DNA of 62,947 bases, filler included, from Sphacelaria rigidula (lineage: Eukaryota): assembly GCA_964200075.2 (NCBI GenBank). It is 6 parts of 6 records of this genome, joined end to end, with 100 filler letters (N's around TTAATTAATTAA, not from the genome) between each part and the next. Parts side by side here need not be neighbours in the genome. Positions count along the whole stretch, not along the records: positions 10,510 to 20,918 come from CAXNAA020006546.1; 5 more parts are not named here. One strand, 5' to 3'. The position numbers and the translations under genes are program-made. The notes below the pieces were generated by a model. It had not been told where the DNA came from. It worked only from the letters and a program-made list of their open reading frames with translations, and made no database searches. Every line of letters starts with the position of its first letter. Positions within the stretch are counted from its first letter, which is position 1. Shown piece after piece: positions 10,410 through 62,117 of the stretch.

Positions 10410-10509
10410 NNNNNNNNNNNNNNNNNNNNNNNNNNNNNNNNNNNNNNNNNNNNTTAATTAATTAANNNNNNNNNNNNNNNNNNNNNNNNNNNNNNNNNNN
10501 NNNNNNNNN
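10410..10509. other. Artificial contig linker (N-run/TTAATTAATTAA/N-run)
   Basis: 100-nt linker containing a six-frame stop 12-mer. Confidence 0.98.
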
Positions 10510-11869
10510 TGGGACTTCAACCTCATATTATGGTTCAACCCCAAAAATTAGGATCGGCTGTTTGTGATGGCGTTACTGGCGGAGTTGCACTCACGCGCCA
10601 CATCTTTGCGGGATACGTGGAGATCCGAAACACTCCAGATGCACTCCTGCGACCCGAAAATGTGAAAACCCGATTCTGGTGGGCAAAACACACTCCAGCC
10701 ACTCTTTGTTTTACAGCACAGTCCCCAGCGATCGCGGCTTCGAATTTGCGCCCAACCTCATGTTTTATAATATGGTGGTCGACCACGATGAACGTCGGGC
10801 TCACGTACACACCTCACGCAAGCGACACCAACCTGACCCCGCAATACTTACACCCCCTTGCAATTAGCCGACCCCGCTACCGTCTCGGCCGGAGTGTGGT
10901 GCCCTATGTTGCCAGACCCGACGCACTGTCTGTGGTCCAATGATACGGTCAGGGGAGTCCCACACTGGGGCTCTCAGCGCTGCACTTCTCTCTCCGGCGA
11001 TAGTTGGTAGTACGGCCGCTGCTGCCTTCCATCCTACATCAATCAAGAAGTCTACGTCACCTCTCTTCGGACCCTTGCGTGATGTATTTCGGCGCTCCCC
11101 GCCATAATATATATGCACCAAGTCACCGTGGCGCGCTGCGGGCATGGCATGCTCCTTTGTTGGATTCCGGTGAGACCCCACTCCGGCTCGTATGTGGGCG
11201 AAGCGGTGCTCGAGGATATCCTGTGCGCGCTGAGAAGCTGGGGGTGCAATCCGCCGTCCGCGACCCGTATTACATGGGCAAACCCGACTACAGGATGCCG
11301 CAATACACAGCGGAAAACGGTTGGGAACACACGCCGATTAAGAAGAGAGCGACAAATGTTATTCCAAACTTCGCTCGGTTTAAACTATACATGGCCTATT
11401 CTCAGCTGGAGTTCGAGAGTCCTTTGGCCAGACTCGGTATGTAGGCAGCACACGGGGAAATAACCCCAACATGTCCACTGGCACACCATTTTATTGTTCT
11501 TAGCTGCGCACGCTGCTATTGGAATTTCAAATAGGTTTTTGCCATCCACTATTGCACACCCAATGCTGTTTTGTCATAACCTTTGACAGGGTGTAATCAG
11601 TGTTACGGTGTGGGTTATGGTCACGTTTCCCATCCCCACCCCTAAAATGAAGACGCCGCGGAGATAAGATATGTGAACATGGGGTTAGATCGCGACGACA
11701 GTAGACCACAGCTGTACAATGTACCTAGAGCTACGTTCTCATCGCAGTGTCGCTCAATTCTATCTAGTACAGGTCACAAACCAGCGATGGATATCCCTTA
11801 CAAAACTTGTAACTATTTGTACAACAAAAAACGTCATTTTCTCCTGTACCGGGCTGACACGCTGGATAA

Positions 11870-12553
11870 ACCAGTGCTACGCCGGGGGTTAGTGTCACGT
11901 TTGCCACCACCACACCGTTTGGTCAGGAATCGAGCAGGGAAGGCCTGGGACTGTTTACGGTGGAGGCGATGAAGCCCGAAGACTCACCGCCTATGGCGTT
12001 CATGGGTTCCTTTGTGATGTGCGATTTACTTCTGTTAGGGCAGGCGATGGAAATAGATGGTGTGCCTAGATACGAAATCTGTAAAGCGCCTCAGTTTTTG
12101 AAGTTGTTGCAGCCAAGGGACGTGTCGAACGAGGGTTCGACGTTGTACCTGAAACCCGAGCGTAGGAGCTTCCTGTATTACATGAACTCGTCCGAACCTG
12201 TCGAGGACGACACGCATGTTGTACCCAGCAGTGTCTTCGCGAAGGAGCACGACACCCCCGTAGTTGATCGTCAAGAGACGAAGTCGATACTGCGAATCAG
12301 CATTGAAGGCATAATGTTCAACGTCACACGCCCGATTGGTATGAGAGAGGAGCTGCTCTGCCAATATCCAATTTTCGGGGGGAACGCGGATGTGCAAGGT
12401 GTTGGTTCCCAGGGCGGTTCGCCCAATAGAGACGTAGCAGACCGTACAGTTGATGGCAAGACGAGACGGGGCGGCGAGGAAGAGTCGAACGGCGACGACG
12501 GTAGTTCGGACGGTGGTGCTGATGATCAGGACCTTGATTATGTCCCATCATGA
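11870..12553 (+). pseudogene. Divergent SET-domain ORF remnant (intronless) with acidic tail
   Basis: In-frame EGLGLFTVEAM...MAFMG (matches GxGLFA...EYxG), LYYMNSS (matches RFINHS) and IMFNVTRPIGMREELLCQY (matches IxAxRDIxxGEELxxDY), in the order seen in SET domains. A stop at 11867 lies just upstream. Confidence 0.6.
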
Positions 12554-14270
12554 ACGGGTAACCGTCCCTGTGCGGCGAGGCATTTCATTTAGCCTTTTTG
12601 GTAACGTAGACATCATTCGCGATCCTCTGGTGATGTTCGTGTGTTAATATCACTTCTGAACTGTCTCCGAGTAGTGATCGCCTGTCGCCGTTCCAGTCTT
12701 CGTTGTTGTTTAGGCGTCGATGAAAGAAACAGGGTAGAAGACGACGGCGACAATAATGCATAAAATCGATGTTGACCGCTTGATTCTGTCGTAGCGGGTG
12801 TTTCCCGCCACTGGGGGGGGGGCTTTCGCCGCGAAATGCGTCATTTACACAAAAAAAAAGGTTAGTTTTCCCTCGAAAATGCGAACAAGCGTAATATTCC
12901 CTCGCGACACAACGGGTTTATTTGCAAGACAATCGCTTGCACGTCTCCGGATTGAGGGATGGTGCTCCGTGAGTGACAGTGATAACTTGATTCCCGAGAC
13001 GGTTTCAAGACTACTTCGCGTGTCTTGTCGGGAACACTTCACGAAATTTGTCTTGTTACCTTTGTGTACTATCCACACGAAAACAAGCGTGACGTCGACA
13101 TTTTTACACATGGACAGTAGTGAAGTATCAACAGTTACCGCGCCAACATTCTCCTCCACGGTCGCAAGCAAGCGTTTTCGCACGAATAGTAGAGAAACGT
13201 CAACAGTTTGAACGGCAGGATTTCGCACCAATGTGCGAGGTAAGCGTTTTGTCCATTAATGATGCAGGCACAACCGGCCGCTGAAAGCCAAGAAAAGCCT
13301 ACTCTCAATCGTATCGCAGACTCTCAATCTCACAAAAACACTGTTGGACATGAAACAAAGAAGTTAGCCCTCCTTTTTCTTTGACCTACCACTACACAGC
13401 CCGGACATAGACATGGAATAGAGGAGCTAATCCTCCATTTTCTTCAACCTACCATAACAGAGCCCGGACATAGATCTGGAATAGATGCGCGGTCCCAGTT
13501 CATCGGGTGGCCGACTGCTGTGGTACATGTACGCTCGGCTTGCACTTGTAAAACTGCTACTCAAACACACGGCCCACACAAGTACGACGACGGTGCTTCG
13601 ACGGGAATCTGGTGAAACGCCACGTCGGGATATAACCGGGTTGCGCCAGATTGACGGTCTAGCGTTGATCGAGAGTAAGGCTGATGACCTGCTCGACCTT
13701 GACCATTTTCTCATGTTTGTGTGTACGTTATTGCATGTGACAATGCGGCGTGCTTGCAGCTCCACGACGAGATCCTACCCGAGGATATCAGACCCTTCAA
13801 TGGCAAGCTGTAACAGAACGCATATGAGGCCTAGACGAGCATGTCAGAACTGAAACCATTCCAGACATGAATAGACCATTTCTGGAACTGCGGAGAGTTC
13901 TATACTTACGCATGTTGACGGAGGCCACTGCAATCAAAGTATACACACTGACTTCATCCCACGACGGAGCGCTCGCATTCGAGTCTGTCCTAGCCTGACT
14001 GGGGCAGGTATTCTCCAACAAGCACCGGTCAATAAAAAGAGTAGGGATTCCTGTTTCTTGTGTTCTTACTCTCATCAAACGCAGGATTCTCAGTCTGGCA
14101 AAAAGCCTTTTTGACCAGGACTCCCTCGGAATTGAGAACCGCCTTGCATTGTCGAAGAGAAGACACTGTGACGACCAATCATCGTTTCGGACCTCTGACA
14201 CCATACTTGAGCACAAATCAACAGACTCACTACCCCAGCCGTCTGAGAACGGTACAACGATTGGTGTAAT

Positions 14271-17200
14271 CTACCGTGTATCGGACGTCCGAGGAGAAGC
14301 ACTACGTACTCCTAGCTCCAACTTCACCCTCGAATCCTCCTTCACCTCTTCAACCGCCACATCATCATACGTGCCCGAGCATCGAGTTACCGCTGCCGGC
14401 GAACCACAACCCCACACAGTACCCCCACAACCACTGCTGGTGAATCCACAACTACCGCCTTCGCTGCCCCAACCACTTGCAGGAGAAGCCTGCTTCTGGA
14501 ACATCCTCGTCCCATCGCCACCCCGTGTAGGAGAAGGGACCGCCAGCTCTACCTTCATTCCTTCCCTTGCTCCTGCCCGCAAAAACACCTCATCATCAGC
14601 CCTCGAAGGTGGGTGTCTCGGGAGCAAAAGTGGACGTCCCGAGAGCGACCGGCTTCTCTCCCCCTGCCTGGAACCGGCACCTATGCCGTCGTTCGCACCA
14701 GAACCCGACAGTGCTGCGCGCTTGCGCTTCATTCCTCGTTCATCAGCACCGCTCCCTCCATCACCCTCCGTCGCGCTACGGCCAGGGGTGCCCTTAACAG
14801 GGTTGAGCTTCGTGGTGTCGAAAACGGCAGCCGTGTTGTGTGCACTAGCATCCTCTTGGCGAAGTGTTTCCTTGTCGAGAGGTAGTTTGGAGCACTGCTT
14901 CTCGCCGCACCTCTTAGGTACCACATTCGCCATTTCCACCCTGACCACCTTGGCGCAAACCTCTGTCTTACTGCTTACTGCCACACCAGAAGTCGGCAGC
15001 ATGGAGCAGACGTCGTATCCGCACCTGTTGTTCATCACACTCACCATTCCCACCTTGGCATGCTTGGAACAGAACTCCGCCTTCTTGCTTCCCGCCACAC
15101 CATACGACGGCTGCGTGGAGCAGCCCTCGTAGCCGCCCTTCTTTGTCTTCACATTCCCCATTCCCGCCCTGGCATGCTCGGAACATAACTCCGCCTCCTT
15201 GCTTGCCGCCACACCATACGATGGCGGCGTGGAGCAGCCCTCGTGCCCACATATATTTGTCTTCACATTCACCATTCCCGCCCTGGCATGCTTGACACAG
15301 AGCTCCGCCTTCCTGCTAACCGCCACACCATACGACGGCTGCGTGGAGCAGCCCTCGTCGCTGCACATCTTGTTCCTCACATTCACCATTCCCGCCCTGG
15401 CATGCTCGAAACAGAACACCGCCTTCTTGCTTCCCGCCACACCATACGACGGCTGCATGGAGCAGCCGTCGTAGCCGCACATCTTGTTCCTCACATTCAC
15501 CATTCCCGCCCTGGCATGCTCGAAACAGAACACCGCCTTCTTGCTCCCCGCCACACCATACGACGGCTGCATGGAGCAGCCGTGGTAGCCGCACATCTTG
15601 TTCCTCACATTCACCATTCCCGCCCTGGCATGCTCGAAACAGAACTCCGCCTTCTTGCTCCCCGCCACACCATACGACGGCAGCGTGGAGCAGCCCTCGT
15701 ACCCGCAAATCTTGTTCCTCACATTCACCATCCCCGCCCTGGCGTGCTTGGAGCAAAACCCCGCCTTCGTGCTCCCCGCCACACCATACGATGCAATCAT
15801 GCGACAGCTCTCGTCGCTGCACGTCTTGTCCTTCACATTTACCATTCCCGCCCTGGCGTCCTTGACGCAAAAATCCGCGTTTGTGCTTCCCGCCAAACCA
15901 TACGACGGCTGCGTGAAGCAGACGTCGTAGCCGCACATCTTTTTCTTCACATTCATCATTCCCGCCCTGGCGTGTTTGAAACAGAACTCCGCCTTCGTGC
16001 TCCCCGCCAAACCATACGACGGCTGCGTGAAGCATCCCTCGTACCCGCAAATCTTTGTCTTCACATTCACCATTCCCGCCCTGGCATGCTTGGAACAGAA
16101 CTCTGCCTTCGTGCTCCCCAACAAACCATACGACGGCAGCGTGGAGCAGCCCTCGTACCCGCACATCTTTTTCTTCACATTCACCATTCCCGCCCTGGCA
16201 TGCTTGGAGCAGAACTCCGCCTTCGTGCTCCCCGCCACACCATACGACGGCTGCGTGGAGCAGCCCTTGTCGCCGCACGTCTTGTTATTTATATGCACCA
16301 TTCCCACCCTGGAATGCTTGGAACAGAACTCCACCTTCTTGTTTTCCGCCACACCATACGACGGCTGCGTGGAGCAGCCCTCGTGCCCGCACATCTTTTT
16401 CTTCACATTCACCATTCCCGCCCTGGCATGCTTGGAACAGAACTCCACCTTCTTGCTTCCCACCACACCATACGACGGCAGCGTGGAGCAGCCCTCGTAG
16501 CCGCACATCTTGCTCTTCACATTCACCATTCCCGCCCTGGCATGTTTGACGCAAAAATCCGCCTTCTTGCTCCCCGCGAAACCAAACGATGCAAGCGTGC
16601 GACAGCCTCCGTCGCTGCACGTATTGTTTACCACATTCACCATTCCCGCCCTGGCATGCTTGACACAGAGCTCCGCCTTCCTGCTTCCCGCCACACCATA
16701 CGACGGCTGCGTTGAGCAGCCCTCGTCGCTGCACATCTTGTTCCTCACATTCACCATTCCCGCCCTGGCATGCTTGGAACAGAACTCCGCCTTCGTGCTC
16801 CCCGCCACACCATACGACGGCTGCATGGAGCAGCCCTTGTGGCTGCACATCTTGTCCTTCACATTCACCATCCCCGTACTGGCATGTTTAGAACAGAACT
16901 CCGCTTTCGTGCTCCCCGCCACACCATACGACGGCAGCGTGGAGCAGCCCTTGTGGCTGCACATCTTGTTCATCACATTCACCATTCCCGTTTTGGCATG
17001 CTTGGAACAGAACTCCGCCTTCTTGCTTCCCGCCACACCATACGACGGCTGCGTGAAGCATCCCTCGTAGCCGCACATCTTTGTCTTCACATTCACCATT
17101 CCCGCCCGGGCATGCTCGGAACAGAACTCCGCCTTCGTGCTCCCCGCCACACCATACGACGGCTGCAAGGAGCAGCCCTCGTAGCCGCACATCTTTGTCT

Positions 17201-17684
17201 TCACATTCACCATTCCCGCCCGGGCATGCTCGGAACAGAACTCCGCCTTCGTGCTCCCCGCCACACCATACGACGGCTGCGTGGAGCAGCCCTCGTAGCC
17301 GCACATCTTTGTCTTCACATTCACCATTCCCGCCTGGGCATGCTCATAACAGAACTCCGCCTTCGTGCTCCCCGCCACACCATACGATGCAAGCGTGCGA
17401 CAGCCGTCGTCGCTGCACGTCTTGTTATTCACATGCACCATTCCCGCCCTGGCATGTTTGAAACAGGATTTCGTCTTCGTGCTCCCCGCCACACCATACG
17501 ACGACTGAGAGGGACAGCCCTCGTACCCGCACTTGTTTCTTTTCACATTCACCATTCCCGCCTTGGCATGCTTGGAACAGAACTCCACCTTCGTGCCTCC
17601 CGCCACACCATACGACGGACGCGTGGAGCAGCCCTCGTGGCCGCACATTTTGTTCCTCACATTCACCATTTCCGCCCCCGGCAT
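14271..17684 (-). CDS. EsV-1-7 repeat (Cys3His zinc-finger-like) domain protein with 24.5 repeats and a disordered C-terminal tail
   Basis: Single long ORF. Consensus unit MVNVxxKxCxxxGCxxxPSYGVAGSxKAEFCSKHARAG (C-x4-C-x16-C-x2-H) matches the EsV-1-7 motif of phaeoviruses and brown algae. First in-frame ATG is at 17684 and the frame is open to 17840, so the true start is uncertain. Confidence 0.92.
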   Translation of the reverse strand: MPGAEMVNVRNKMCGHEGCSTRPSYGVAGGTKVEFCSKHAKAGMVNVKRNKCGYEGCPSQSSYGVAGSTKTKSCFKHARAGMVHVNNKTCSDDGCRTLASYGVAGSTKAEFCYEHAQAGMVNVKTKMCGYEGCSTQPSYGVAGSTKAEFCSEHARAGMVNVKTKMCGYEGCSLQPSYGVAGSTKAEFCSEHARAGMVNVKTKMCGYEGCFTQPSYGVAGSKKAEFCSKHAKTGMVNVMNKMCSHKGCSTLPSYGVAGSTKAEFCSKHASTGMVNVKDKMCSHKGCSMQPSYGVAGSTKAEFCSKHARAGMVNVRNKMCSDEGCSTQPSYGVAGSRKAELCVKHARAGMVNVVNNTCSDGGCRTLASFGFAGSKKADFCVKHARAGMVNVKSKMCGYEGCSTLPSYGVVGSKKVEFCSKHARAGMVNVKKKMCGHEGCSTQPSYGVAENKKVEFCSKHSRVGMVHINNKTCGDKGCSTQPSYGVAGSTKAEFCSKHARAGMVNVKKKMCGYEGCSTLPSYGLLGSTKAEFCSKHARAGMVNVKTKICGYEGCFTQPSYGLAGSTKAEFCFKHARAGMMNVKKKMCGYDVCFTQPSYGLAGSTNADFCVKDARAGMVNVKDKTCSDESCRMIASYGVAGSTKAGFCSKHARAGMVNVRNKICGYEGCSTLPSYGVAGSKKAEFCFEHARAGMVNVRNKMCGYHGCSMQPSYGVAGSKKAVFCFEHARAGMVNVRNKMCGYDGCSMQPSYGVAGSKKAVFCFEHARAGMVNVRNKMCSDEGCSTQPSYGVAVSRKAELCVKHARAGMVNVKTNICGHEGCSTPPSYGVAASKEAELCSEHARAGMGNVKTKKGGYEGCSTQPSYGVAGSKKAEFCSKHAKVGMVSVMNNRCGYDVCSMLPTSGVAVSSKTEVCAKVVRVEMANVVPKRCGEKQCSKLPLDKETLRQEDASAHNTAAVFDTTKLNPVKGTPGRSATEGDGGSGADERGMKRKRAALSGSGANDGIGAGSRQGERSRSLSGRPLLLPRHPPSRADDEVFLRAGAREGMKVELAVPSPTRGGDGTRMFQKQASPASGWGSEGGSCGFTSSGCGGTVWGCGSPAAVTRCSGTYDDVAVEEVKEDSRVKLELGVRSASPRTSDTR
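14934..17669 (-). repeat. Coding tandem repeat, 24 x 114 bp
   Basis: Exact 114-nt period with no indels, plus a terminal half unit at 14880-14933. Confidence 0.95.
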
Positions 17685-19511
17685 GCTTGTTGATGTACCT
17701 TCTTCTAGGAATGTCGGCCGTGAGCTCCTTCGGAGGCGCTCCTTCGAAATTGTACTGCTTAGAGTAGCACGAATACCCAGACGTTGGAAAATATTTTGTG
17801 TGTCGCAGGCCAAAGCAAGTCGAAACGCCTTGCAGTGCAAATGTCATGTCATTGCTGCACAACCTTTGGAGAAAAAGCGTGTGCCTGCCTTCAACTCAGA
17901 AGACGCTTCATGTGAGCTGACGCCAACTTGCAAGATGATTCCAGCGGATGGGACGCCCTCTACGCTTTTGCAGTAGGAATCAGAAGCGGATCAAGCAATA
18001 GAGTGGTACAAAACGAAAGACCATCATGCTACAGGGCGCATGTAAAGCACAACACCGATGCTGAAGGATGTCGTATCATGGAGGAACGGCAGATTGCTAT
18101 ATTTCAAAGTAGCAAATGTAGGGCTTACACGTCACACACGACGAGTCACCCAGAAAATGTTATGCACGATCAAGAGCCAGACATAGCAACCGACTGAGTG
18201 AGCGATCGCTATGCAGCATCACATGAGCAATCTACTCGGGTACACATTCGAACGGGCGCGAGTGTGGGGGGCGGGACGGCTGCAGTGTTGCTAACCCGCA
18301 GCACCAGCAGAACTGCACCTGCCGTATTACAGCTTGCGAAGAGGGTGAAGGCGATGTGATACATAAAGCGACTTTCTCAATTTAGCATAGACACTTGCTA
18401 CGTCAAAATATGAAAATAATTTGTTGAGATATCGACAATATGTTCCTGCACGAGTTAGGGGCAAGAAAAAATACATCAATATTTCACCGAAACGGCGCTG
18501 AATCATGAACTCCCAACTCGATGTCCCACAAGTACCTTTTTTCGTGCTCTCACGATTTTGAATGTCAAACTTGAACGTCCGACCCCCAAAATTGAGGCAA
18601 GAATGCCATATCCACACCCCAGGTCGCTCGAGAATCGGCTTGGAAGGCCACTTGCCAGCCCAGTTCTGTCACTTGTGACTCGAACGTTCGTGTGGAGAGT
18701 CGCTACGGTATGACATCGAGGAAAAACGTGGGACAGGGAGTTTTCATTTGTAGCATGGACCGTTTCTCACGGTTCGTGTTTGTTTGGGGTCGTCTTTGAC
18801 ACAGGTTGTAAAACCTCAACAAGGAATATTGCCGTCACACGTCTTGGATACTCTGCAGTGGCCCACCAAAGAAGTTGAGCCCACTTTTCATATTCGCTTG
18901 GCTCCAAGGTGTCGAGAATGGTCTCTGGAAACCACACACGGCTTGCAAACAAATGCGGTGCCTGCAGGTATTTTGACGTGGAGCTGAGAGTACCGGCCGT
19001 TTGCCCGTGCTCCAGGGAATGTTTGCACTGATTATTATCATCACCAGCTCCACGTATCGTTCGGGGTTCCGTATAGACTTTGGTATGGGCCCAATTTCCA
19101 TACGCTTCACAATTATCCGATCTAGCATTCAATCTACGAGAAATCATCTGCCCAGGCTTTTTCCGCTCGTGAGCATCGTCTCTTAAATTAAACGATTAAA
19201 AGATATGCGCATCACAGCTCAATCCGAGTATGTCGACGAGATATAGCTGTGAGAGGTGCAATCCGTCATCAGGCTAACCCATCTCGAGTATGGTTTCGAT
19301 CAAAACAGCCGTGGAAAGACCTGAAACGCCTGGACGAGAACGTTCCCACGTAGTTTTGTGCTATTAGCATCACCCAACGGCCTCTGTGGACTTTCCAGCG
19401 ATGTCCGAGTCGTACAACGACTCATGAAGATTAGTGTTTTCGACAGGATATTGAACGATAATACCGCCGTGGCGGAGGTCAGAATCGAAACAGAAACTAA
19501 ACAGAGGGTTC

Positions 19512-19768
19512 CACGGTTCGGACGAATCATCGCCGGTTCTTATCACCAAATCCACAATTTCTCAGGCCTGATTGGTCGAAAGAGAGAACAAGTCGACCGC
19601 TGGTCAAACAAGTCTCCTCACAACGTTTGCGCCATTCCACGTGCCTAGGCTGCGTGTACCTGGCTTGCCACGCTGAAAACAAGGCGTAAGGATCGATTCG
19701 TGCCGTACGAGTCATTCACACTAAAATCAAGTAACTTCCCGACGAATCATTAATTCGTCCGAGCCTTG
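19512..19768. mobile_element. hAT-like MITE, family B
   Basis: CACGGTTCGGACGAAT...ATTCGTCCGAGCCTTG with a perfect 8-bp TSD GAGGGTTC. Confidence 0.92.
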
Positions 19769-20764
19769 GAGGGTTCTGTAGACTCCAGCCACATTTGTTA
19801 CCTAGGTTGAGGAATAAATGTAGGCGGAACAACGCGTAGTAGGTGTTTACCGCTGGTTGATGGATCGCGGGTGTGCATTGCATTGGTCCGAGCCAGCTTC
19901 TCCCCACGGGGCGTTCTTCATTGTACAAGAATAGGAGCAGTGTCCCGAAATCGTCGGTAAACGTCGTGCAGCCAGGACAGTACCTCAAGGGGACGCAGCA
20001 ACTCCAACACCCACTATCGGAATACGGTACGTGCAACGACAGTTTGATGTCTTGAAACATTTCGTCAGATACGCGGCGTACAAAACAGGAGGTGCTCGCT
20101 TCCGGCAACTTCATGGTTTTCGAGCGTTTGTACTGAAACGGCATGATTTCTGATACTATATCAGACTGGTTGTATAAGAGGTTGTGTACATAAAGGCACC
20201 CAACGTTCATCATCGGAATGGTACGTATGAGCTTTTCCTGCTGTGCTTGCTGTGCTGTGCTGTGCTGTGTAATGGCTGTCGCGGGTGCTCATGAGCTGCA
20301 GTGGTGAGCATACACACAAGTTGTCACATATATCGTGTTGGACAGGGTAGCATGTGAGGTCGGCGCGTGTATGGTGTGCTGGCCATAAATTCGAAGACAA
20401 CGGCGAAGTTTGGTGAAAGGTGGCGAATCCTTCACATGTGTGAAGAAAGTGTCCTGTGAACCACCCCGACAAGCGTTCGCGACTCGTGTGTGCGGTTCCG
20501 CGTTGTCGATGAGCTGCACAGGGTGCGAGGACGACTCTGTACAACTCGTCTTGCGTAACGGAAAGCCCGCAAGAGTACCTCCTGGAAGTCATCGCAAAAG
20601 AAGGGAGGGGAGGCCACTCTGGCATGAGAGTGGAACCCACGAGAAATAATGGGGATGACTCTGTTTTAGAACTATCGACCCATACTTCCTTGGATGCAAA
20701 GATTTTGAGTCATCCCGACGTGTAGTAAAAGCTAATCCCGAGCACGGAATATTTACCTTGTGGT

Positions 20765-20918
20765 GAGCAATGCTACGGTAGGGGTGCACGTTTTTCGCGA
20801 AAGTTTGTCTGGTTCAGGGGCTCCCAACGATTCTAGACGCACAAGAATATGGGTCCGGGCATCCCCGTGTGCAGATTTATGCCGGATATCCCCAGCATAT
20901 TGGAATCGTAATCCTGAC
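20765..20918 (+). mobile_element. MITE family C (TIR GAGYRATGCTACGGTAGGGGT), truncated by contig end
   Basis: Aligns with the left parts of 29839-30094 and 55400-55660. Confidence 0.85.
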
Positions 20919-21018
20919 NNNNNNNNNNNNNNNNNNNNNNNNNNNNNNNNNNNNNNNNNNNNTTAATTAATTAANNNNNNNNNNNNNNNNNNNNNNNNNN
21001 NNNNNNNNNNNNNNNNNN
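20919..21018. other. Artificial contig linker
   Basis: 100-nt N/TTAATTAATTAA/N. Confidence 0.98.
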
Positions 21019-23510: not shown

Positions 23511-26500
23511 TTTCAATTGTGTGATTCGATTCCCGATGTCCTCGTTAGCCATACTATTGTCCCGGCCGCGCTCCNNNNNNNNNNTTTGTCCACAAAACTG
23601 GCCCAACCGGTTTCCCTTCGGCCCTGCCGGTTTCTCTCCCCTTTATAAATCCCCCCCCCCCCCCCCCATTACTTGTGTTTCTTCGTTGAATGATTGCGTT
23701 CAATTTCGATCAGGTGCTCATGGGTTTCGTTTGGGCGAGATCAAGCGGCGATGGACCACAGCCCCATATCAATATCAATATCAAGGTACACGGGCGGCTG
23801 TCTGTCGGGTTTTGTCAATGTTAGACGAAGATGAAGGAGGACAGCCGCGAATCTCGAGCGTTGCGGAGTTGGAAGGTGCGCGTTCACTCACATCAGATGT
23901 AAGAATAGCGTCCTTGTGTGACGCCAGTCACGCCCTGCTTCATGATACCTGTGATACTAACGTGAGGAGTTGGCGTATCGGAGCTGCTTTACATTGCAAA
24001 GACTCACCAAAGTTCAAAACACTTGAGTTAACACCAAGGCGCATGAAATCCACGCCCTGGACACCTGGTGTTACCCACCTCAAGTCCGAGTATTTTCAAC
24101 GACACTAACTATCTTCATCTCTCCGCGCATCTCCACGTGCGTTCCCCTCCAGCGCTCACCGTCAAACAGCTCAAGTCTTATCTTAAAGCCTATAAGCTGA
24201 AGCAAACAGGGCGAAAATCGGAGCTGATTAAAGTCTTGGCAGAATCTCTAGGTCTTTCGCCAACCGCAAAAAACGGCGCGGACATGACCAGCAACGAAGT
24301 ATTGGTTGCTGGCAAAAAGCGAAGATCAAGGAATGCCCCGACGGATCTTCTGCCAACAGTGGAGCAAGTCATTGGAGAATCGGCGCAACGAAAGACCCGT
24401 TCTCCGGATGAAAACGATACTCAAACGGCGACAGGCAAACCTATTTTTGATGCAGAGATGGCGACACCGGAAGGATTTTCATCGGAACCAGACCCGTCCT
24501 CAACAGAGTATTCCACAAACTCGCCCTACGCGATACTCCCGCCGCCTGAAGAAGACATGTTGAGAAGAAAAGTCATCCAGGATCTCATGGCGCGACGACA
24601 CTTGAAATATGACTTGGCTGAGGCGTTTTACCCTGAAACGTACATGAAGGACAAGGGTCCTGCACCCGAGGGTGACATGTACGCCGTTTTCACACCAAGA
24701 GCCGTACGACCATGGGACAGTCCGCATGCGGACCGGGCTGAGACGCATCTCGTGGTGCTACTGGCGGACGTGATGGGGTGGGAAGATGCGTACACCCGGA
24801 ACTTCGCGGATCGCGTATCCGAAGTCTGCGACGCTATCGTGTTGGTTCCGGATATATTCAGAGGTAGACCCTGGTCCAAGGACAAGCCACAGGAAGGATA
24901 CGAAGAGTGGAGAGCTTCGCACGATCCGGTAGGTGGTCGTTGCACCGGGAGAATTTAACACCGAATGGCGTTCACGTCGAGCTGACGTTCGGTCTGATGG
25001 TGGCTTCATGGAGGGGCCATTTCGCCAGTCTCTGGTTGGAGATGGTATAGGCCATTAACCTCTGTATCGTTGACTTTTAGGTGTGAAGCATCCACATCCT
25101 AGTGCAGCAAACGGCACTTTCGGCTGCTGATTGTGACCATTGCTTCTAAAACAGATGAATATTGCCGCGCGCAGGACACGGTCTCAAGCGATATCCGAGC
25201 CTGTGTAGCACATGCTAGGATGGAATTCAAACCGACTTCGTTGGCGCTGATGGGATTCTGCTATGGAGGCGGCCGGGCTCTGGAGGAAGCTGCAGCAGGT
25301 GGGCACGTTTGGCGGTTGCGCTTCGATTCGTGTCGCTGCATGCTGCTGTGTGTTGCGATGCCACCATCGGATCGAATTGGTACTTCCCTTATAATGGAGA
25401 GGGTTGCAGCGACCATTTTATTCGTTCGAATGTTGCTTCTATTCGTTCCACATATTGGATATCGAGATGTTGCCCTATCTCGTACAAGCTGAATACCCGA
25501 TGTCTCGACACTGGGTTATCAGGGTGTGGGGTGTGAATATCCAGATCTGAGTGAAACATGTATGTCTCACGTATAAATTCATGTATACTGTGTATGTGAG
25601 TATATGTAGCGTAATCCTGGCCTGGCACATGCAAACAATTCTACGCGTGATACCTCTCGATTCGGGGTACTCTGCTTTGCCGTATTTGCGGATGCTCTCA
25701 TTCACCACATGTCCATGGCTGAGGATGGTCGTATGAACGTCACGTGAATGTGTGTTACGTCTATGGGTGTGCTGTCTGTTGCTGCGTAGCTCTATCCAGG
25801 AACTGGGGAAGAGAGGGTGATATCTACTGTACTGTCTTCCATGAACTGCTGTCAACATGGACGCACGCACATCATGAGAACATTCAAGTGCACATGTCTT
25901 CCACTGTAGCACTATTTTTGTCGTTGTTGTGTCGCGAGGATCGTTTGAATGCAAAGTAGAAGCCGGGGGTGGTGGCGCTGCGTTTGACAAAGTGAGCTGC
26001 ATGCGTACAGCAGCCGTGGAAGCAACCATCAGCCCAGTACTGCAGCGTGTCCCTCGGAGGAAATGCGCTCCTTCTTTTTTCTTGTCACACTAAATCCTCA
26101 CTATATTCTCCAGAGACCTGTATTCTGTAAATCGTTTAGGCATATCGTCTGGTTTACTTGTCTTCGCTCTGTACAATGCCAGCGATCCACTTGAGAATCC
26201 TGACCCCTCCTGACACTCGAAAGGGTTACGGCGCGTCTGTCGACTCAGAATCGTTTCCTCGAGGAACGAATTTGGGACCGTGCTCACCGATGCTGACGGG
26301 TCAAGGGTGATATATACGGAGACCTCAGTGTCGTTATACTCCGCTGCTCGTGGGGAGGTGGAGCGAGAAGCGATTACGAGGGGTAGCCAGGCGAAAGTAC
26401 CATGTATTCGAAGTCATTCTCTGCGCCTTGCCCTACTGTACGCTAGCGATGCTGTGCTGTCTGTGCTCTGCTGCACCGAACTGCGTGCGCGATGCAACTA

Positions 26501-31426: not shown

Positions 31427-31526
31427 NNNNNNNNNNNNNNNNNNNNNNNNNNNNNNNNNNNNNNNNNNNNTTAATTAATTAANNNNNNNNNNNNNNNNNN
31501 NNNNNNNNNNNNNNNNNNNNNNNNNN
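31427..31526. other. Artificial contig linker
   Basis: 100-nt N/TTAATTAATTAA/N. Confidence 0.98.
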
Positions 31527-41933: not shown

Positions 41934-42033
41934 NNNNNNNNNNNNNNNNNNNNNNNNNNNNNNNNNNNNNNNNNNNNTTAATTAATTAANNNNNNNNNNN
42001 NNNNNNNNNNNNNNNNNNNNNNNNNNNNNNNNN
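41934..42033. other. Artificial contig linker
   Basis: 100-nt N/TTAATTAATTAA/N. Confidence 0.98.
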
Positions 42034-43286: not shown

Positions 43287-46200
43287 TCATTTGTATAATC
43301 CCCCGTTAACTGATGCGTGGGCTGTGGTCGTCAGCCCACCCATGCCTACAGCCGGCATTTTTCTCAGTGAAAGTTGTGTGTAGAGACCTTTATGTCCATT
43401 CCTGCTAATGAAATATACAATGCCTTTGGTGGGATCGGTGATGCGTCCGATGGGGGAATCATCGATAGGTTGAGCCAGTGTGGGCAAGCGTGACAGAAAG
43501 TCGGCGGCTTTTTCATTTTGCGAGCCCGTGCGATATTTCAGCTGGAAGTTGTTAGACGACAGGATTTCGAACCAGCGTTGTACCCTAGCGTGGTGTTCCG
43601 CCATTTTGGCAAGGCTTTCCAAAGACTTATGATCCGTATAAATCACAGAGGAGATGTCATACAAATACTGACGCAGACGTCGCATGCCCCACACAACTGC
43701 GCCGGCCTCTTGTTCCATGACAGACCAAATCTGTTCATTCGGAAAAGTGGTGCGACTCAGATAGACAATGGGACGAACAGTAGCATCGACTTACTCCTGT
43801 TCTAACGTGCAGCCAAACCCAATTTGGAAGAATCTGTGTTGAGACGGAAAGGGCGGGAACCTTGCTTCGCTGCCGACCAGTCGGGCAAGACGAGAATCGG
43901 GGGGCGCGAAAGGATGTCAAGAAGACGGCGGAGTGTTTTTTCCATTTCCGATGTGAACACAAATTTCACTCCTTTTCTGAGGAGGGTGGTGAGGGGTTTT
44001 AGCTTTCGGGCAAGGTTTGGCAAGTACTGTCTGTAGTAGCATATACCTCCCAACAAGGGACGTAGTTGAAAAATGTCCCGTGGCATGAGCATATCGGCGA
44101 GTGCGGCGACCTTGTCGAGGTTTGGGCTACGACCTTCGGGGGCACTGCAATGACCCAAGAACTCAATCTTCCTGGCGCCAATGCGGGATTTGGAGGGGGC
44201 GAGTTTAAAGTTGTGTTGTTTAAACTCATGAAATAATTATACCAACTGTTCGACGTGTTCAGCCGGTGTGGAGTCGTGGCACACCGCATCATCAACGTAC
44301 ATATGGCATTTGGGCAATCCATCAGTTACACGGAACATTACACGTTGAAACGCACCTGTAGCTCCGGCGGCACCTTGTGGTGTAACCAGCCACTCCTACA
44401 AACCTGATGGCGTGCAAAACGCTGTCAGTTCAATGGAATTTGCATCCATCACGAGCTGGTGGTAGCCGGACTGCATGTCAAAGTTCGAAACTACCTTACC
44501 CCCGCCACGAGAGTCAATGATTCCATCAGTCCGTGGAAGTGGCAGCCGGGCGATTTTGGTGACAGAGTTCAATCGTTGATAATTGACCGCCAGTCTGATT
44601 TTGCCATTTTTCTTACGGACGACTACTTAAGGCGAGGCTCACGAAGACGTCGAGTGCCGAATTAAACCGACGGATAAGAAACCATCGAGAATTACCTGGA
44701 TATCCGCTAAGAGGGGGTTCGTATGGTTCGGACGCATAGCGATAGGCGGAGTGCCATCAGAGATTTTGATCTTAAACGGTGTTGTGGTACATCGGCCTAA
44801 ATTCAAGGGTGCAGCAGAAAACCGTTCAGAATATCTACTCAAGATGAATCTCAATTTATCGATTACAGTGGGTGTCCAACCATCGCCAGATAGATAAAAA
44901 ACAATATGCCGTATTTGAGGGGGGATGTCATCTCACAACTTTTGAAAACTGGCGCGTTGCTCTGTGGAAAATCTATCCAGTAATGCATTTTGGGGTTGAG
45001 GTTCAGGCGCATCTGGTGGATTTGTCACCACTATGGGATTAGGCATGTGTAGCGGAGGGGGGCCCGTGGATTTCGGGGGGTCGGTTGACGAGTTGCTGTC
45101 CGCAGAGGGGCACACATCTGACCGGGCTGTTCGTGTGATGGGCGCTTGTGCATAACCCAACAACTGATCGTTGAGTAAATCGAAACATGCAGGGGACGTG
45201 AGGTAAATGGCCTGCCTACCCTCGTGGACAAAGACTTCGGTCTGTTCAAACGGACCAACCTGTGCTCGGTCAGGTTTGAGCAATTCGATCAAATAATGTC
45301 CTGTGAGGGCGGGCGATCCATTGCGTCTCACGAGGTTCACTTCGATACGTTGGGGTTCACGAGAAAGCGAGACTACAGGTTCTCCAACATAGTACAGACG
45401 GAAAGCATTACCTGTTTGCGTGGGGTCATCCTCGTAGGTGTTAGCTCCCGAATCAGTGTCGAAGTGACCCGGTGTCAGTTTGCCTGTGACTGGACGGTTC
45501 GGGACAGGTGTGTCCGACGTATACGTGTGTGTGGAATAACGCAGCTAACTATCTTGACCCAACAAAAGATCAAAAGACATGGAACCGTCGGGCATAATTT
45601 TCGCCCATACGGATAACTGAGCAGTGGGGGTAGTATCCTGATAGAATTGTACACTTAGTCTCACCGATTGGTTAACCGTAAGAGATGTGGAGGAACCATA
45701 CGCACCAAAAACACGAGGGTGCTCGGTGGACAGACAATGCTCGTCCGCTGCGCCCGCGTTGATCATCTGTTGCCAGCAGCTGGCTGTAATAAACGTTTGA
45801 GGCGAACCAGAGTCTGGGAGTGCAAGAGCTAATAAATGACAGTTTGCACGCGCTCCACTATGTATACCTATCTTGGTCGTGAAAGAAGCATCATCCATAG
45901 TTGCAGTACCACTGACGAGATCGAGCCCGAATTCGGGTAAGATATCTGACACATCCTACTTTGCATTTTGAACGAAGGTGCTAAAATACACCCGTTGGTG
46001 ATCCTGTGGGACAAGCTTTTGGTCGGGAGGATGGTGCATGCATGGAGTCTCAGTGTTTGTGCCTGGAATATTTGTCTCATCAGTCGAGGGTTGAATATCG
46101 TATACTGCAACGGAGGGGCGATGCCGGGGAAGGGCAGTTTTCGTGGTTGGACCCGACAACTGATCTGTGCGTGGTGTTTCACCCATATCGGCCAATAGAG

Positions 46201-52440: not shown

Positions 52441-52540
52441 NNNNNNNNNNNNNNNNNNNNNNNNNNNNNNNNNNNNNNNNNNNNTTAATTAATTAANNNN
52501 NNNNNNNNNNNNNNNNNNNNNNNNNNNNNNNNNNNNNNNN
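52441..52540. other. Artificial contig linker
   Basis: 100-nt N/TTAATTAATTAA/N. Confidence 0.98.
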
Positions 52541-59989: not shown

Positions 59990-62117
59990 TGCTCTCGCCT
60001 CTTTTAAATGCACACAGACGCTAGCAACGATGAGTTCAGCGCGGTTCTGAATCAACCTCAACTTGATATCTCTGTTCAATTAATCCTTTATACCAGCCGT
60101 GCCACCCTGTCAAACGAGGCGAACTTGAGCCCACTGGAGTTGGAAGACGGGGTCATCACTTGGGCTATAAAACGCCTTCGACAATATTTGTTCCACGTGT
60201 CATTCCACATTTACACGAATCACGGAGCACACGAGGAACTCGTTAGAGTTGGCGAACATAATCCGCGTGTGCAACCCTGGTTGGAATTTCTGACAGCCCA
60301 CCAGTATACTGTCATCCACCGCCCAGGCAAAACCAATGGGAATGCTGACCTTCTCTCCCACCTGCCCCTTCTCCCAACGACCGTAAACTTCAGCCCAGCT
60401 TGCCGATTCACTGAACCCGATGAACCGGGCGTGTATCCTATCCGATGTTTATTAACGCCCATTCACGCCCTTGACCTCCAGTGCCCAGAGACTGGTATGC
60501 ACGCATGGTCGGCCCTCGCCCGCTACCGTGTAATGCAGTATTGGGTGAGCTATAGCCCACGAACATCGATTTCGTCGATTTCCGCACTATCGGCCCTCGT
60601 GTGGATATTTCAGCCCCGCAACCCCCAGTTATCCATCTCATTTCCGACAATACGCGCTCTCAGTCTGCCGCCCGCGCCAACCCCCCCCCCCCACGCCCCG
60701 CGCCACCGACAACGACAACGACTACTGCTCACACGAGCAGCGTAGCACGGGCTCCCCGTAACAGCACGCCACGAGCCTCGTCAAAACCCGCCACGCTCAA
60801 TGCACGCAACAAGCGCCGATCACTTTCTCCGGCCAGCAATGCTTCAGCAGGGATTGCAGTTTTTGTTTCGGGGGCTCTCCTTCTTGTAGGAGTACAAATA
60901 TATGGATCTTACTGTGCAACCCAAATCTCTGGGGACCGGGCTCCCAGAACCATGGTGTTTGCACGAAAGGGCCTTCCGTTAATCGGCATCAATTTCAGTA
61001 TTTCCCAAGTAAAAATGATGCCGATTCATAAAGTGACCCGTCCGACACCCCAGCCCCGAGAAACGTTTTCGCCAAAAAAGCGCAATTTTACCATAGCATC
61101 ACTCCGGCGCGCACTACTTTGACAACGCTGCCCTCCGCGGCACCGTCCGTGCTCACCCCTTCTGATGATAGAATGGACGCCTCCGACCCTGACCCCGATA
61201 TGAATATTGACGTTGGCACCCCCGCCCCGTCGCCTGTCCCACCACTTCCTGAGCCACCATACCTGGTCGGCTCCCCGGCGGAAGGCCAACTGCGCGAGTT
61301 CCTCGCCAGGTACTCCCATCGTGATGGGGCTCGTGAACAACAAGCAGAACCATTATGCCGCGCCACCATGTGGTACTTACAGGTTGGTTGCCCTGTCCCT
61401 ATCCTGGCCAATGTTCTGGCCGCGGTTAGTACACTGGCATGTAAAGGTACTATCTCCACCACTGGTGACGATATTCAACTGCTTGTCCGCCACCCTACGT
61501 CCCAGCCGGATGTAACTTCAACCGCGACCACTCGACGTCATGCACGCCTACGCGATGAAAATCCCACCAGCATTTATGTCCCATTTGTGATGCGACCGGG
61601 AGTCATGAAAAGCTGCCACACTGACCTGTCTTGCCACCTTGATGTCACGCGCACATTAGCGCAACTTGAACGTTTTTACTGGTGTATCGATATGAAGGTA
61701 TCCACCCGTTTTTGGATCCGGCGACTCTTTAAGTGCCAAGCTCGCAAAACCTCACGGCAGACAATACGTTGGCTCATCATTTTTATGGAACTTCCCAACG
61801 TCCCTGGTCACCTCGTGCCTCTTGACTTTCCCGATCCCTTACCGACCACTGATCGTGGCAACACCTACACTTTACTTTTCACCGACCGCTTCAGCCGTCA
61901 TGCGTCCATGTACGCAGTCAAAGCTGGAGACTTCATAGCTGCAGGCACAGCTAACACCCTAGTTTACGACTATATTAAGCACCATGGTTGTCCGAAACGG
62001 CTCTTCTCCGACAACGGTCGGCAATTTTGCTCCGATCTCTCGGACGGGCTGTATGCGCTCCTGGACATTCGCAAGATAGCCACGAGCGCCCACCACCCCA
62101 ATGGTAACGTTGGTACT
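59990..62117 (+). mobile_element. Ty3/Gypsy RNase H + integrase N-terminal half (degenerate, inverted relative to the C-half)
   Basis: RNase H motifs HTDAS...ELEDGVITWAIKRLRQYL...YTNH. Integrase zinc region CHTDLSCHL...KCQARK and core FTDRFSRH, LFSDNGRQF, SAHHPNGNVGT. Confidence 0.9.

Follow-up and report, generated by a model that had tools for sequence, protein, structure and literature searches.

In the present study we describe a gene that encodes 24 EsV-1-7 repeats in tandem, found in a stretch of 62,947 nucleotides of Sphacelaria rigidula DNA (GenBank assembly GCA_964200075.2) that we call the window; it joins parts of six records, positions 10,510 to 20,918 being from CAXNAA020006546.1. 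Six-frame translation reveals a minus-strand frame open over 1189 codons (14271-17840), whose first ATG is codon 53, and the array begins 5 residues past this start methionine (Table 1). A single tandem array is reported by Tandem Repeats Finder at 14980-17689, with a period of 114, 23.8 copies, 85% matches, 0% indels (insertions or deletions) and a score of 3602, and a hidden Markov model (HMM) of the unit, built from the window units, finds 24 full units at the array and no others in the six-frame translation of the window. The initial annotation, made from the DNA alone, had described 24 units of exactly 38 amino acids (aa), and the period, the absence of indels, the table of units and the Pfam match all bear this out. 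Pfam family PF19114 (EsV_1_7_cys, IPR043822; gathering cut-off 25 bits) matches the protein in 23 stretches with 1117.7 bits and E=0, and it is the sole family with matched stretches, the three further families listed having none of their own in the protein. Profile score, ligand pattern and a period of about 38 aa all fit this repeat family, to which, judged by its sequence, the array belongs; the family had been rightly named at the outset.

The unit consensus is MVNVKxKMCGYEGCSTQPSYGVAGSTKAEFCSKHARAG, with M1, C14, G21 and C31 invariant in the 24 units, C9 and G38 kept in 23 and H34 in 22, so that the near-invariant scaffold first described is present. The full C-C-C-H ligand set is found in 21 of the 24 units, while units 16, 23 and 24 are each short of one ligand. 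By this pattern each unit would bind one zinc ion through C9, C14, C31 and H34; in the available parts of the literature zinc binding by the EsV-1-7 repeat is a proposal and not an established fact. The array is rich in lysine and arginine, as had been noted, with 130 K+R against 59 D+E, a net charge of +71 and an isoelectric point of 9.29, and the basic residues recur at columns 5, 7, 27, 33 and 36 in 17-22 of the 24 units. The half repeat with which the array was said to end does exist as a partial unit of 19 aa, but we prefer to see it as the front of a degenerate 25th unit, the C-x2-H that follows it being kept as 'LCRQHA' in most relatives sharing the same tail and reading 'LRQEDA', with R and D in place of the ligands, in the window protein (14847-14864).

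Two further observations concern the gene itself. A distinct type of unit (T8, S-D-x-G/S, R-T/M-L/I-A) stands at units 3 (17328-17441), 10 (16530-16643) and 17 (15732-15845). The 7-unit super-period that the recurrence of 'SD-x-G-C-R' at these units might suggest is not supported, since identity at offsets 7 and 14 is raised only marginally (0.855-0.858 against 0.83-0.86 elsewhere). Upstream of the start codon, in another frame of the minus strand (17686-17748), the translation FEGAPPKEL..RRYINK is identical at 16 of 21 positions to the predicted N-terminus of the relative P0058, and this match may reflect a conserved leader, a 5' untranslated region or an error in either gene model.

The array shows the marks of selection on its reading frame. 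Four of the six frames contain no stop in the consensus unit, which provides an internal control for stop counts: over the array the coding frame has none, and the other three frames of this group hold 6, 2 and 12. Of all single-base changes to the consensus, 4.7% would create a stop. Without selection 12.9 stops would be expected from the 276 differences between units and consensus, or about 8 if the 171 changes counted on the unit tree are taken instead. No indel occurs across the 24 units (2736 nt). Because no stops and no indels are found where about 8-13 stops were expected, we consider the frame and the scaffold to be under purifying selection. In the scaffold, taken as the columns that remain when the variable ones defined below are set aside, the ratio of nonsynonymous to synonymous rates (dN/dS, or omega) is 0.475 with the scaffold's own dS and 0.45 with the global dS when units 1-23 are compared in pairs by the Nei-Gojobori method, and 0.48-0.51 on the unit tree with parsimony counts. 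Pairs of units share on average 84.5% of their nucleotides (dS about 0.22), and the youngest pairs are far closer, with 98.2% for units 4/5 and 19/20 and 97.4% for 9/21; the array most likely grew through unit duplication and unequal exchange, with turnover still ongoing.

These data bear on the possibility of a runaway array, in which the tract of a young paralogue was expanded by unequal crossing-over and is now drifting, the protein being dispensable. Such a history would suit the near-neutral variable columns, the decay of units 16, 23, 24 and the 25th, the far fewer units of the same-tail relatives (0-7 complete units by regular expression), the very large and fast-evolving family as portrayed in the available part of 10.1101/2024.02.19.579948, and the fact that the gene appears in no run recorded as RNA. 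However, the frame without a single stop or indel over 2736 nt, a scaffold omega of about 0.5 and 91 of 96 ligand positions intact all speak against it, and we consider this explanation very unlikely. By these measures the gene is a genuine, selected and exceptionally long member of the EsV-1-7 family. Contigs from four sequencing runs, whose library kind is a guess and whose pieces are of 115-460 nt, span 13188-14940. One joint in them, from 14562 to 14798, skips 235 letters, but with just 23 letters on one side it was left out of account. Loose contig ends lie at 14527, 14557 and 14820 in all four runs, which indicates further genomic copies carrying part of the tail. Just downstream of the gene, at 13188-13484, lies a very high-copy repeat, over which the contig depths of run X6 add up to as much as 856,355.

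When 5.8 billion proteins were searched by word index, 21 matches of similar length came up; the best covers 36% of the query at 47% identity, and P0002, with 16 Pfam stretches, has the longest array among them. A full scan with HMMER of 1.84 billion representatives found 6390 matches at E<=0.001, of which 1065 reach E<=1e-30, and an 11-unit protein scores best, with 543 bits. The relatives analysed below form a set of 166 protein sequences, i.e. 165 relatives and the window protein (P0001), in which units were counted both with the unit HMM and with a regular expression for the ligand pattern. The HMM finds at least one unit in 165 of the 166 proteins, with 24 in the window protein, 14 in the next and 11 in two others, and the regular expression gives a maximum of 16 units outside the window protein. 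The window array is thus the longest in these searches, as far as sequence counts go; longer arrays may be present in the list of 2018 brown-algal members (10.1101/2024.02.19.579948). Across the 165 other proteins, which contribute 709 units, the ligand columns are conserved in 703-704 of these. The closest full array is 47-62% identical, only the tail having a relative with 80% identity, and the relatives with named sources come from Sphacelaria, Scytosiphon and Ectocarpus. P0002 itself has, besides its 16 units, a long region on the N-terminal side and a C-terminal domain of another kind bearing the motif E-A-D-G-P-T-H, for which no family was found (THAP at E=0.41) and no relative among the 166 proteins.

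The most informative feature of the relatives is the company that the repeat keeps. The 190 C-terminal residues of P0007 are matched over at least 100 aa in 80 of the 166 proteins, and the motif E-x-D-x3-H is present in 78 of them. In these 80 proteins, apparently of giant viruses, the array (median 10 units and maximum 16 by regular expression) lies N-terminal to a nuclease resembling Vsr and I-Bth0305I. An alignment of 30 nuclease tails shows R100, D102, E115, D117, E118, H121, R132, R149, N151, P152, D153 and five cysteines to be invariant. The model of the P0007 tail (predicted local distance difference test, pLDDT, 88.7; predicted template modelling score, pTM, 0.73) was compared with solved structures (VIA), a comparison in which a Z under about 8 can reflect a merely common arrangement. 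It matches Vsr with DNA (1cw0_A) with Z 8.7 and a root-mean-square deviation (rmsd) of 4.7 over 125 aligned residues, I-Bth0305I (3r3p_A) with Z 8.3 and rmsd 3.9 over 95 of 97 residues, and Vsr again (1vsr) with Z 7.8. The lower rows (Z 6.9-4.9) are nearly all PD-(D/E)XK nucleases, including McrC, Can2, PspGI and Hjc, and amid the rows there also stand unrelated chains, namely the mitoribosomal 9g6k_Li (Z 7.8), 6lkf (6.1) and 5ksr_B (4.9). By sequence the tail is weakly recognised, Pfam giving Hjc at E=0.022, below the cut-off, and the PDB giving 1gef_A at E=0.37. Because the Z values are middling, the assignment as a Vsr-like nuclease rests on fold and motif taken together.

According to the available text of PMC3239194, I-Bth0305I is a homing endonuclease in which the C-terminal Vsr-like domain cuts while the rest contributes to a footprint of about 60 bp. 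Given this layout, the fused EsV-1-7 array sits where a homing-type enzyme needs its DNA-binding part. Another DNA enzyme that carries the repeat is the Ectocarpus Tc1/mariner transposase TcMar-2_Ec32, which, in the part of PMC12477816 at hand, is described with an N-terminal EsV-1-7 domain. The literature, in the portions available, reports no nuclease fusion of EsV-1-7 repeats. Analysis of these fusions lends indirect support to DNA binding as the most likely job of the repeat, and the five basic positions of each unit point in the same direction; to this extent the nucleic-acid binder proposed by the initial annotation is sustained, but not its code-based part, to which we return below.

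We explored the structure of the repeat by modelling eight units from an in-register alignment of shifted windows together with 12 relatives. In the model residues 1-3 and 20-22 of each unit form short strands and residues 32-34 a helical turn, suggesting a small zinc-knuckle module in which the conserved MVNV, SYGVAGS-K-x-x-F and HARAG segments may form strands and joints. Foldseek against the PDB gives no solved fold for the array model at E<=0.001, its weak rows including PZP/PHD, LIM, RING, B-box and GATA. In the VIA comparison only RING rows exceed Z 2 (2yhn_A with Z 3.2 and rmsd 3.2 over 43 aligned residues; 2yho_A with Z 3.1). A PDB sequence search returns no match for the whole protein and four meaningless ones for the unit profile, the best at E 0.32.

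The nature of these rows leads to consider the array as a protein-protein scaffold, since zinc modules such as LIM, RING, PHD and B-box bind proteins or multimerise, in which case the long array would be a platform on which nuclear or cytoplasmic complexes assemble and the variable knuckle residues would tune the choice of partner. The RING rows, the weak PZP/PHD, LIM, RING and B-box matches and the lack of any other Pfam domain in the Ectocarpus members, as stated in the available part of the preprint 10.64898/2026.04.27.720984, would agree with such a role. Nevertheless, the structural matches are all much too weak to carry meaning, the domains found repeatedly beside the array in relatives are DNA enzymes (Vsr-like nuclease and transposase) and a net charge of +71 would be unusual for a pure protein-binding platform; we therefore regard a scaffold as unlikely. 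The C3H ligand set and the basic surface could also be those of an RNA binder, whose C-C-C-H modules would bind single-stranded RNA, in the way of tandem CCCH and zinc-knuckle proteins, so that the array coats or selects transcripts. Against this, the verified fusion partners act on DNA and the C-x4-C-x16-C-x2-H spacing is, as we take it, unlike that of the classical CCCH and CCHC RNA-binding fingers, which makes an RNA-binding role highly improbable.

The variable positions of the units had been read at first as the slots of a code, in the manner of TALE or PRDM9. All the variable strings then listed occur, together with a few more, and the variation is indeed concentrated, with 11 of the 38 columns above 1.2 bits (5, 6, 8, 11, 12, 15, 16, 17, 26, 29 and 32); nonetheless the entropy across the columns is graded, not bimodal, with a maximum of 2.07 bits, and columns 8, 26 and 32 had been left out. 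The entropy profile of the window array correlates with that of 139 units from 20 other proteins (Spearman rho 0.72) and, among arrays of at least 5 units, with the mean within-array entropy of 38 nuclease-fused arrays (rho 0.66) and of 51 others (rho 0.70). The profiles of nuclease-fused and other arrays agree with each other at rho 0.91, both being graded over most non-ligand columns. Because the same columns vary in 89 other arrays, the window slots are the ordinary soft positions of the family; that they stand out more sharply in the window array is due to the youth of its units.

In order to measure selection on these positions, variable columns were defined a priori from the 139 units of the 20 other proteins, the window array being left out. 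For the 12 most variable (5, 6, 8, 10, 11, 12, 15, 17, 22, 25, 29 and 33) the pairwise dN/dS is 1.14 with their own dS and 1.34 with the global dS (bootstrap 1.10-1.72), the tree giving 0.91-1.07 (P=0.31). Restricted to the 8 core columns (5, 6, 8, 10-12, 15 and 17), the pairwise values are 1.41 and 1.69 (bootstrap 1.45-2.19), and the tree gives 1.16-1.27, from 50.5 nonsynonymous and 9.5 synonymous changes, with P=0.06 against neutrality. As pairwise counts re-use shared history, we trust the tree-based values, on which the variable slots evolve at about the neutral rate while the scaffold is constrained. A neutral dN/dS at the variable positions was the outcome that the initial annotation had itself named as telling against a code.

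A true modular reader, comparable to TALE, PUF/PPR or C2H2 arrays, would have each unit contact one or a few bases, so that the succession of units specifies a long DNA or RNA target, and some of these data would favour it. Of the 24 units, 23 have a unique combination of the 14 slot residues, and the slots vary independently, only one of ten slot pairs (D-E) reaching P<0.05 in shuffles (P=0.03). Since nearly all of the variable columns (5-8, 10-12, 15-17 and 32-33) flank ligands, they cluster round the zinc site of each unit and would thus lie close together; the pairwise dN/dS of the core columns is 1.41-1.69, and the relatives place their arrays where a homing-type nuclease, as set out in the part of PMC3239194 available, needs DNA targeting. 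Against such a reader stand the tree omega, about neutral for both sets of columns, the variation of the same columns in 38 nuclease-fused and 51 other arrays with graded entropy not confined to two or three slots, the absence of a small recurrent vocabulary over the 24 units (14, 11 and 11 states in three slots) and a dS of about 0.22, which is not the scaffold homogenisation of PRDM9 or TALE arrays. As the same columns vary family-wide and omega is near neutral, a TALE/PRDM9-like code is not supported, and we judge a base-by-base reader to be quite unlikely.

The C-terminal tail brings a different kind of evidence. Ten relatives sharing it were found by phmmer (P0032, P0058, P0030, P0035, P0023, P0024, P0036, P0034, P0031 and P0073), and these, the window tail and P0112, included by eye, make up an alignment of 12 tails (A4) with 25-80% identity to that of the window, P0032 being at 80% and P0112 at 25%. 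New here are a conserved KRKR block and two psi-K-x-E motifs, the former within a widely kept R-G-x-K-R-K-R-A basic block; in a tail that otherwise evolves fast, these are the features best conserved. Counted against shuffles, [VILMF]-K-x-E occurs 46 times where 10.5 are expected in the tails of 68 non-nuclease (host-type) family members, and 25 times against 9.3 in 57 proteins outside the tail subfamily, an enrichment of about 3-4-fold, although kinship among the proteins makes such counts non-independent. We take psi-K-x-E in the tail to be the SUMO-acceptor consensus, and KRKR, in our view, resembles a nuclear localisation signal; the motifs may thus be SUMO sites and a localisation signal. 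Together they argue for a regulated nuclear protein.

Thus, we propose that the window gene encodes a nuclear zinc-repeat protein that binds DNA, a reading to which we assign a probability of about one half; both the nuclear location and the DNA binding of this protein are what we infer from its tail and from its family. In this mechanism the protein would lie along DNA, with the conserved basic positions 5, 7, 27, 33 and 36 of each unit holding the backbone, while the loosely constrained residues near the zinc knuckle (5, 6, 8, 10-12, 15-17 and 32-33) might confer at most a partial sequence preference like that of finger arrays, and the disordered tail would serve nuclear import and regulation.

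Several points weigh against this proposal. Neither the window protein nor any of the 11 relatives with its tail carries a nuclease or transposase domain, and none of them is among the 80 fused proteins; because this tail subfamily has no such domain, the link to DNA reaches the window protein by family only. Foldseek gives no match for the P0007 tail at E<=0.001 (best E=0.024), a middling result in which the weak rows are almost all PD-(D/E)XK. The 8-unit model is mediocre (pLDDT 70.0, pTM 0.27), its inter-unit geometry being unreliable. The near-neutral variable columns fit unconstrained surface loops as well as specificity residues, and an array of 24 units would cover a stretch of DNA much longer than the usual site of a transcription factor. 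Finally, the literature on EsV-1-7 proteins, in the portions available, holds no datum on ligand, binding, zinc or localisation.

A more ambitious combination of these elements can be envisaged, in which EsV-1-7 would be a further natural class of modular DNA-reading repeat. Giant viruses would aim Vsr-type homing nucleases with short arrays, and brown algae would have domesticated and massively expanded the repeat as KZFP-like nuclear regulators; the window protein, an extreme case, would read a long target or several alternative ones via its knuckle residues, and its tail would recruit SUMO-dependent chromatin machinery via the two psi-K-x-E motifs. To this joint reading we give only a small chance.

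The surroundings of the gene, collected in Table 1 with its own features, are to be taken with care, as the window joins parts of several records and the neighbours with Pfam matches need not adjoin the array gene in the genome. The window holds 13 open frames of at least 200 aa. Outside the array 99 open frames reach 110 aa or more, and 4 of them have a Pfam match at E<=1e-4 (SAP, RT_RNaseH twice and an integrase zinc domain). No viral hallmark gene is found among these 99 frames, a survey in which short or spliced genes could be missed. Since nothing viral was found, the window looks like host DNA rather than an integrated phaeovirus. Paired 44-N runs every 10.5 kb or so (10410-10509, 20919-21018, 31427-31526, 41934-42033 and 52441-52540) are the filler between the joined parts, and one 10-N run (23575-23584) looks like masking or an assembly artefact rather than biology.

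Table 1. Features of the EsV-1-7 array gene and of the remainder of the window (LTR, long terminal repeat; TRF, Tandem Repeats Finder).
Feature	Position	Strand	Basis or remark
Coding sequence	14271..17684	-	First in-frame ATG (MPGAE-MVNV...) to stop; 1137 aa; apparently single exon
24 EsV-1-7 units, each exactly 38 aa (114 nt)	14934..17669	-	TRF, Pfam and unit HMM; C9-x4-C14-x16-C31-x2-H34
Unit 1	17556-17669	-	
Unit 16, H34 to D	15846..15959	-	Ligand set CCCD
Units 23 (C9 to G) and 24 (H34 to V), degenerate	14934..15161	-	C-terminal end of the array
Unit 24	14934-15047	-	
Degenerate 25th unit, first half only (M-x-N-V, C9, C14)	14877..14933	-	19 aa; partial match of unit HMM, profile positions 1-18
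C-terminal tail, low-complexity	14274..14876	-	201 aa; common to a subfamily of shorter EsV-1-7 proteins
KRKR basic block	14718..14729	-	Kept in 7/12 aligned tails; related basic blocks in most others
First psi-K-x-E, MKVE	14547..14558	-	K and E are the only invariant columns of the 12-tail alignment (MKVEL)
Second psi-K-x-E, VKLE (VKLELGV), near the C-terminus	14316..14327	-	psi-K-x-E in 9/10 tails reaching there; one VKID
SAP-domain frame	24047-24955	+	Pfam
LTR-retrotransposon piece	43290-43790	-	Pfam
LTR-retrotransposon piece	60008-60742	+	Pfam
LTR-retrotransposon piece	61032-62117	+	Pfam

The EsV-1-7 family is, according to the parts of the literature at hand, among the largest gene-family expansions of brown algae and includes a developmental regulator. 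As the longest and most regular array found, the window gene lends itself to studies of zinc binding, DNA binding and structure, and the family-wide link to a nuclease and a transposase offers a concrete, testable molecular role. If the repeat reads DNA, the roughly 80 natural array-nuclease fusions would provide a route to decoding it, and the conserved tail with KRKR and psi-K-x-E suggests regulation of the host proteins.

Among known systems, the nearest is the brown-algal family itself, with 2018 genes in 31 genomes, and within it the regulator IMM (IMMEDIATE UPRIGHT), which consists of an IMM-specific N-terminal domain followed by five repeats (10.1101/2024.02.19.579948, available part); none of the Ectocarpus members has another Pfam domain in the portion at hand of the preprint cited above. 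The window protein shares with them the repeat, its period of about 38 aa, the absence of any other Pfam domain and the brown-algal named relatives. It differs from IMM in having 24.5 units instead of 5, no IMM-type N-terminal domain and a conserved tail of its own with KRKR and two psi-K-x-E motifs; judged against the description of IMM rather than its sequence, a protein of 24 units whose array starts 5 residues after the first methionine is not an IMM orthologue. The giant-virus fusions with a Vsr or 'EDxHD' (3R3P) nuclease have the same repeat, the same ligand columns and similar within-array variable columns (rho 0.66), whereas the window protein has no nuclease tail, a longer array and a setting of host-type DNA with retrotransposon fragments. 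As for TcMar-2_Ec32, likened here by description and not by sequence, the available part of PMC12477816 indicates that a host genome uses the domain in the position normally taken by the DNA-binding part of a transposase, although there the domain sits on an enzyme and here 24 units form a free-standing array.

The arrays of C2H2 zinc fingers (KRAB-ZFPs, PRDM9) resemble the window protein as long arrays of small zinc modules with few variable positions, in a lineage-specific, fast-growing and tandemly clustered family. The C2H2 finger has the pattern C-x2-4-C-x12-H-x3-5-H and a beta-beta-alpha fold, from which the ligand pattern and the predicted secondary structure of the EsV-1-7 unit differ, and the window protein has no zf-C2H2 Pfam match; moreover its slots have no clear dN/dS above 1, and its scaffold is not homogenised (dS about 0.22). 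With TALE repeats the array has in common a fixed unit length (38 against about 34 aa), a perfect phase and a degenerate or partial last unit. Unlike TALE units, those of the window are predicted to be non-helical and metal-dependent, and their variation is moderate and spread over 10-12 columns, where TALE units have two hypervariable residues; being 38-aa Cys/His units with predicted short strands, one helical turn and 11 columns above 1.2 bits, they are not of the TALE type.

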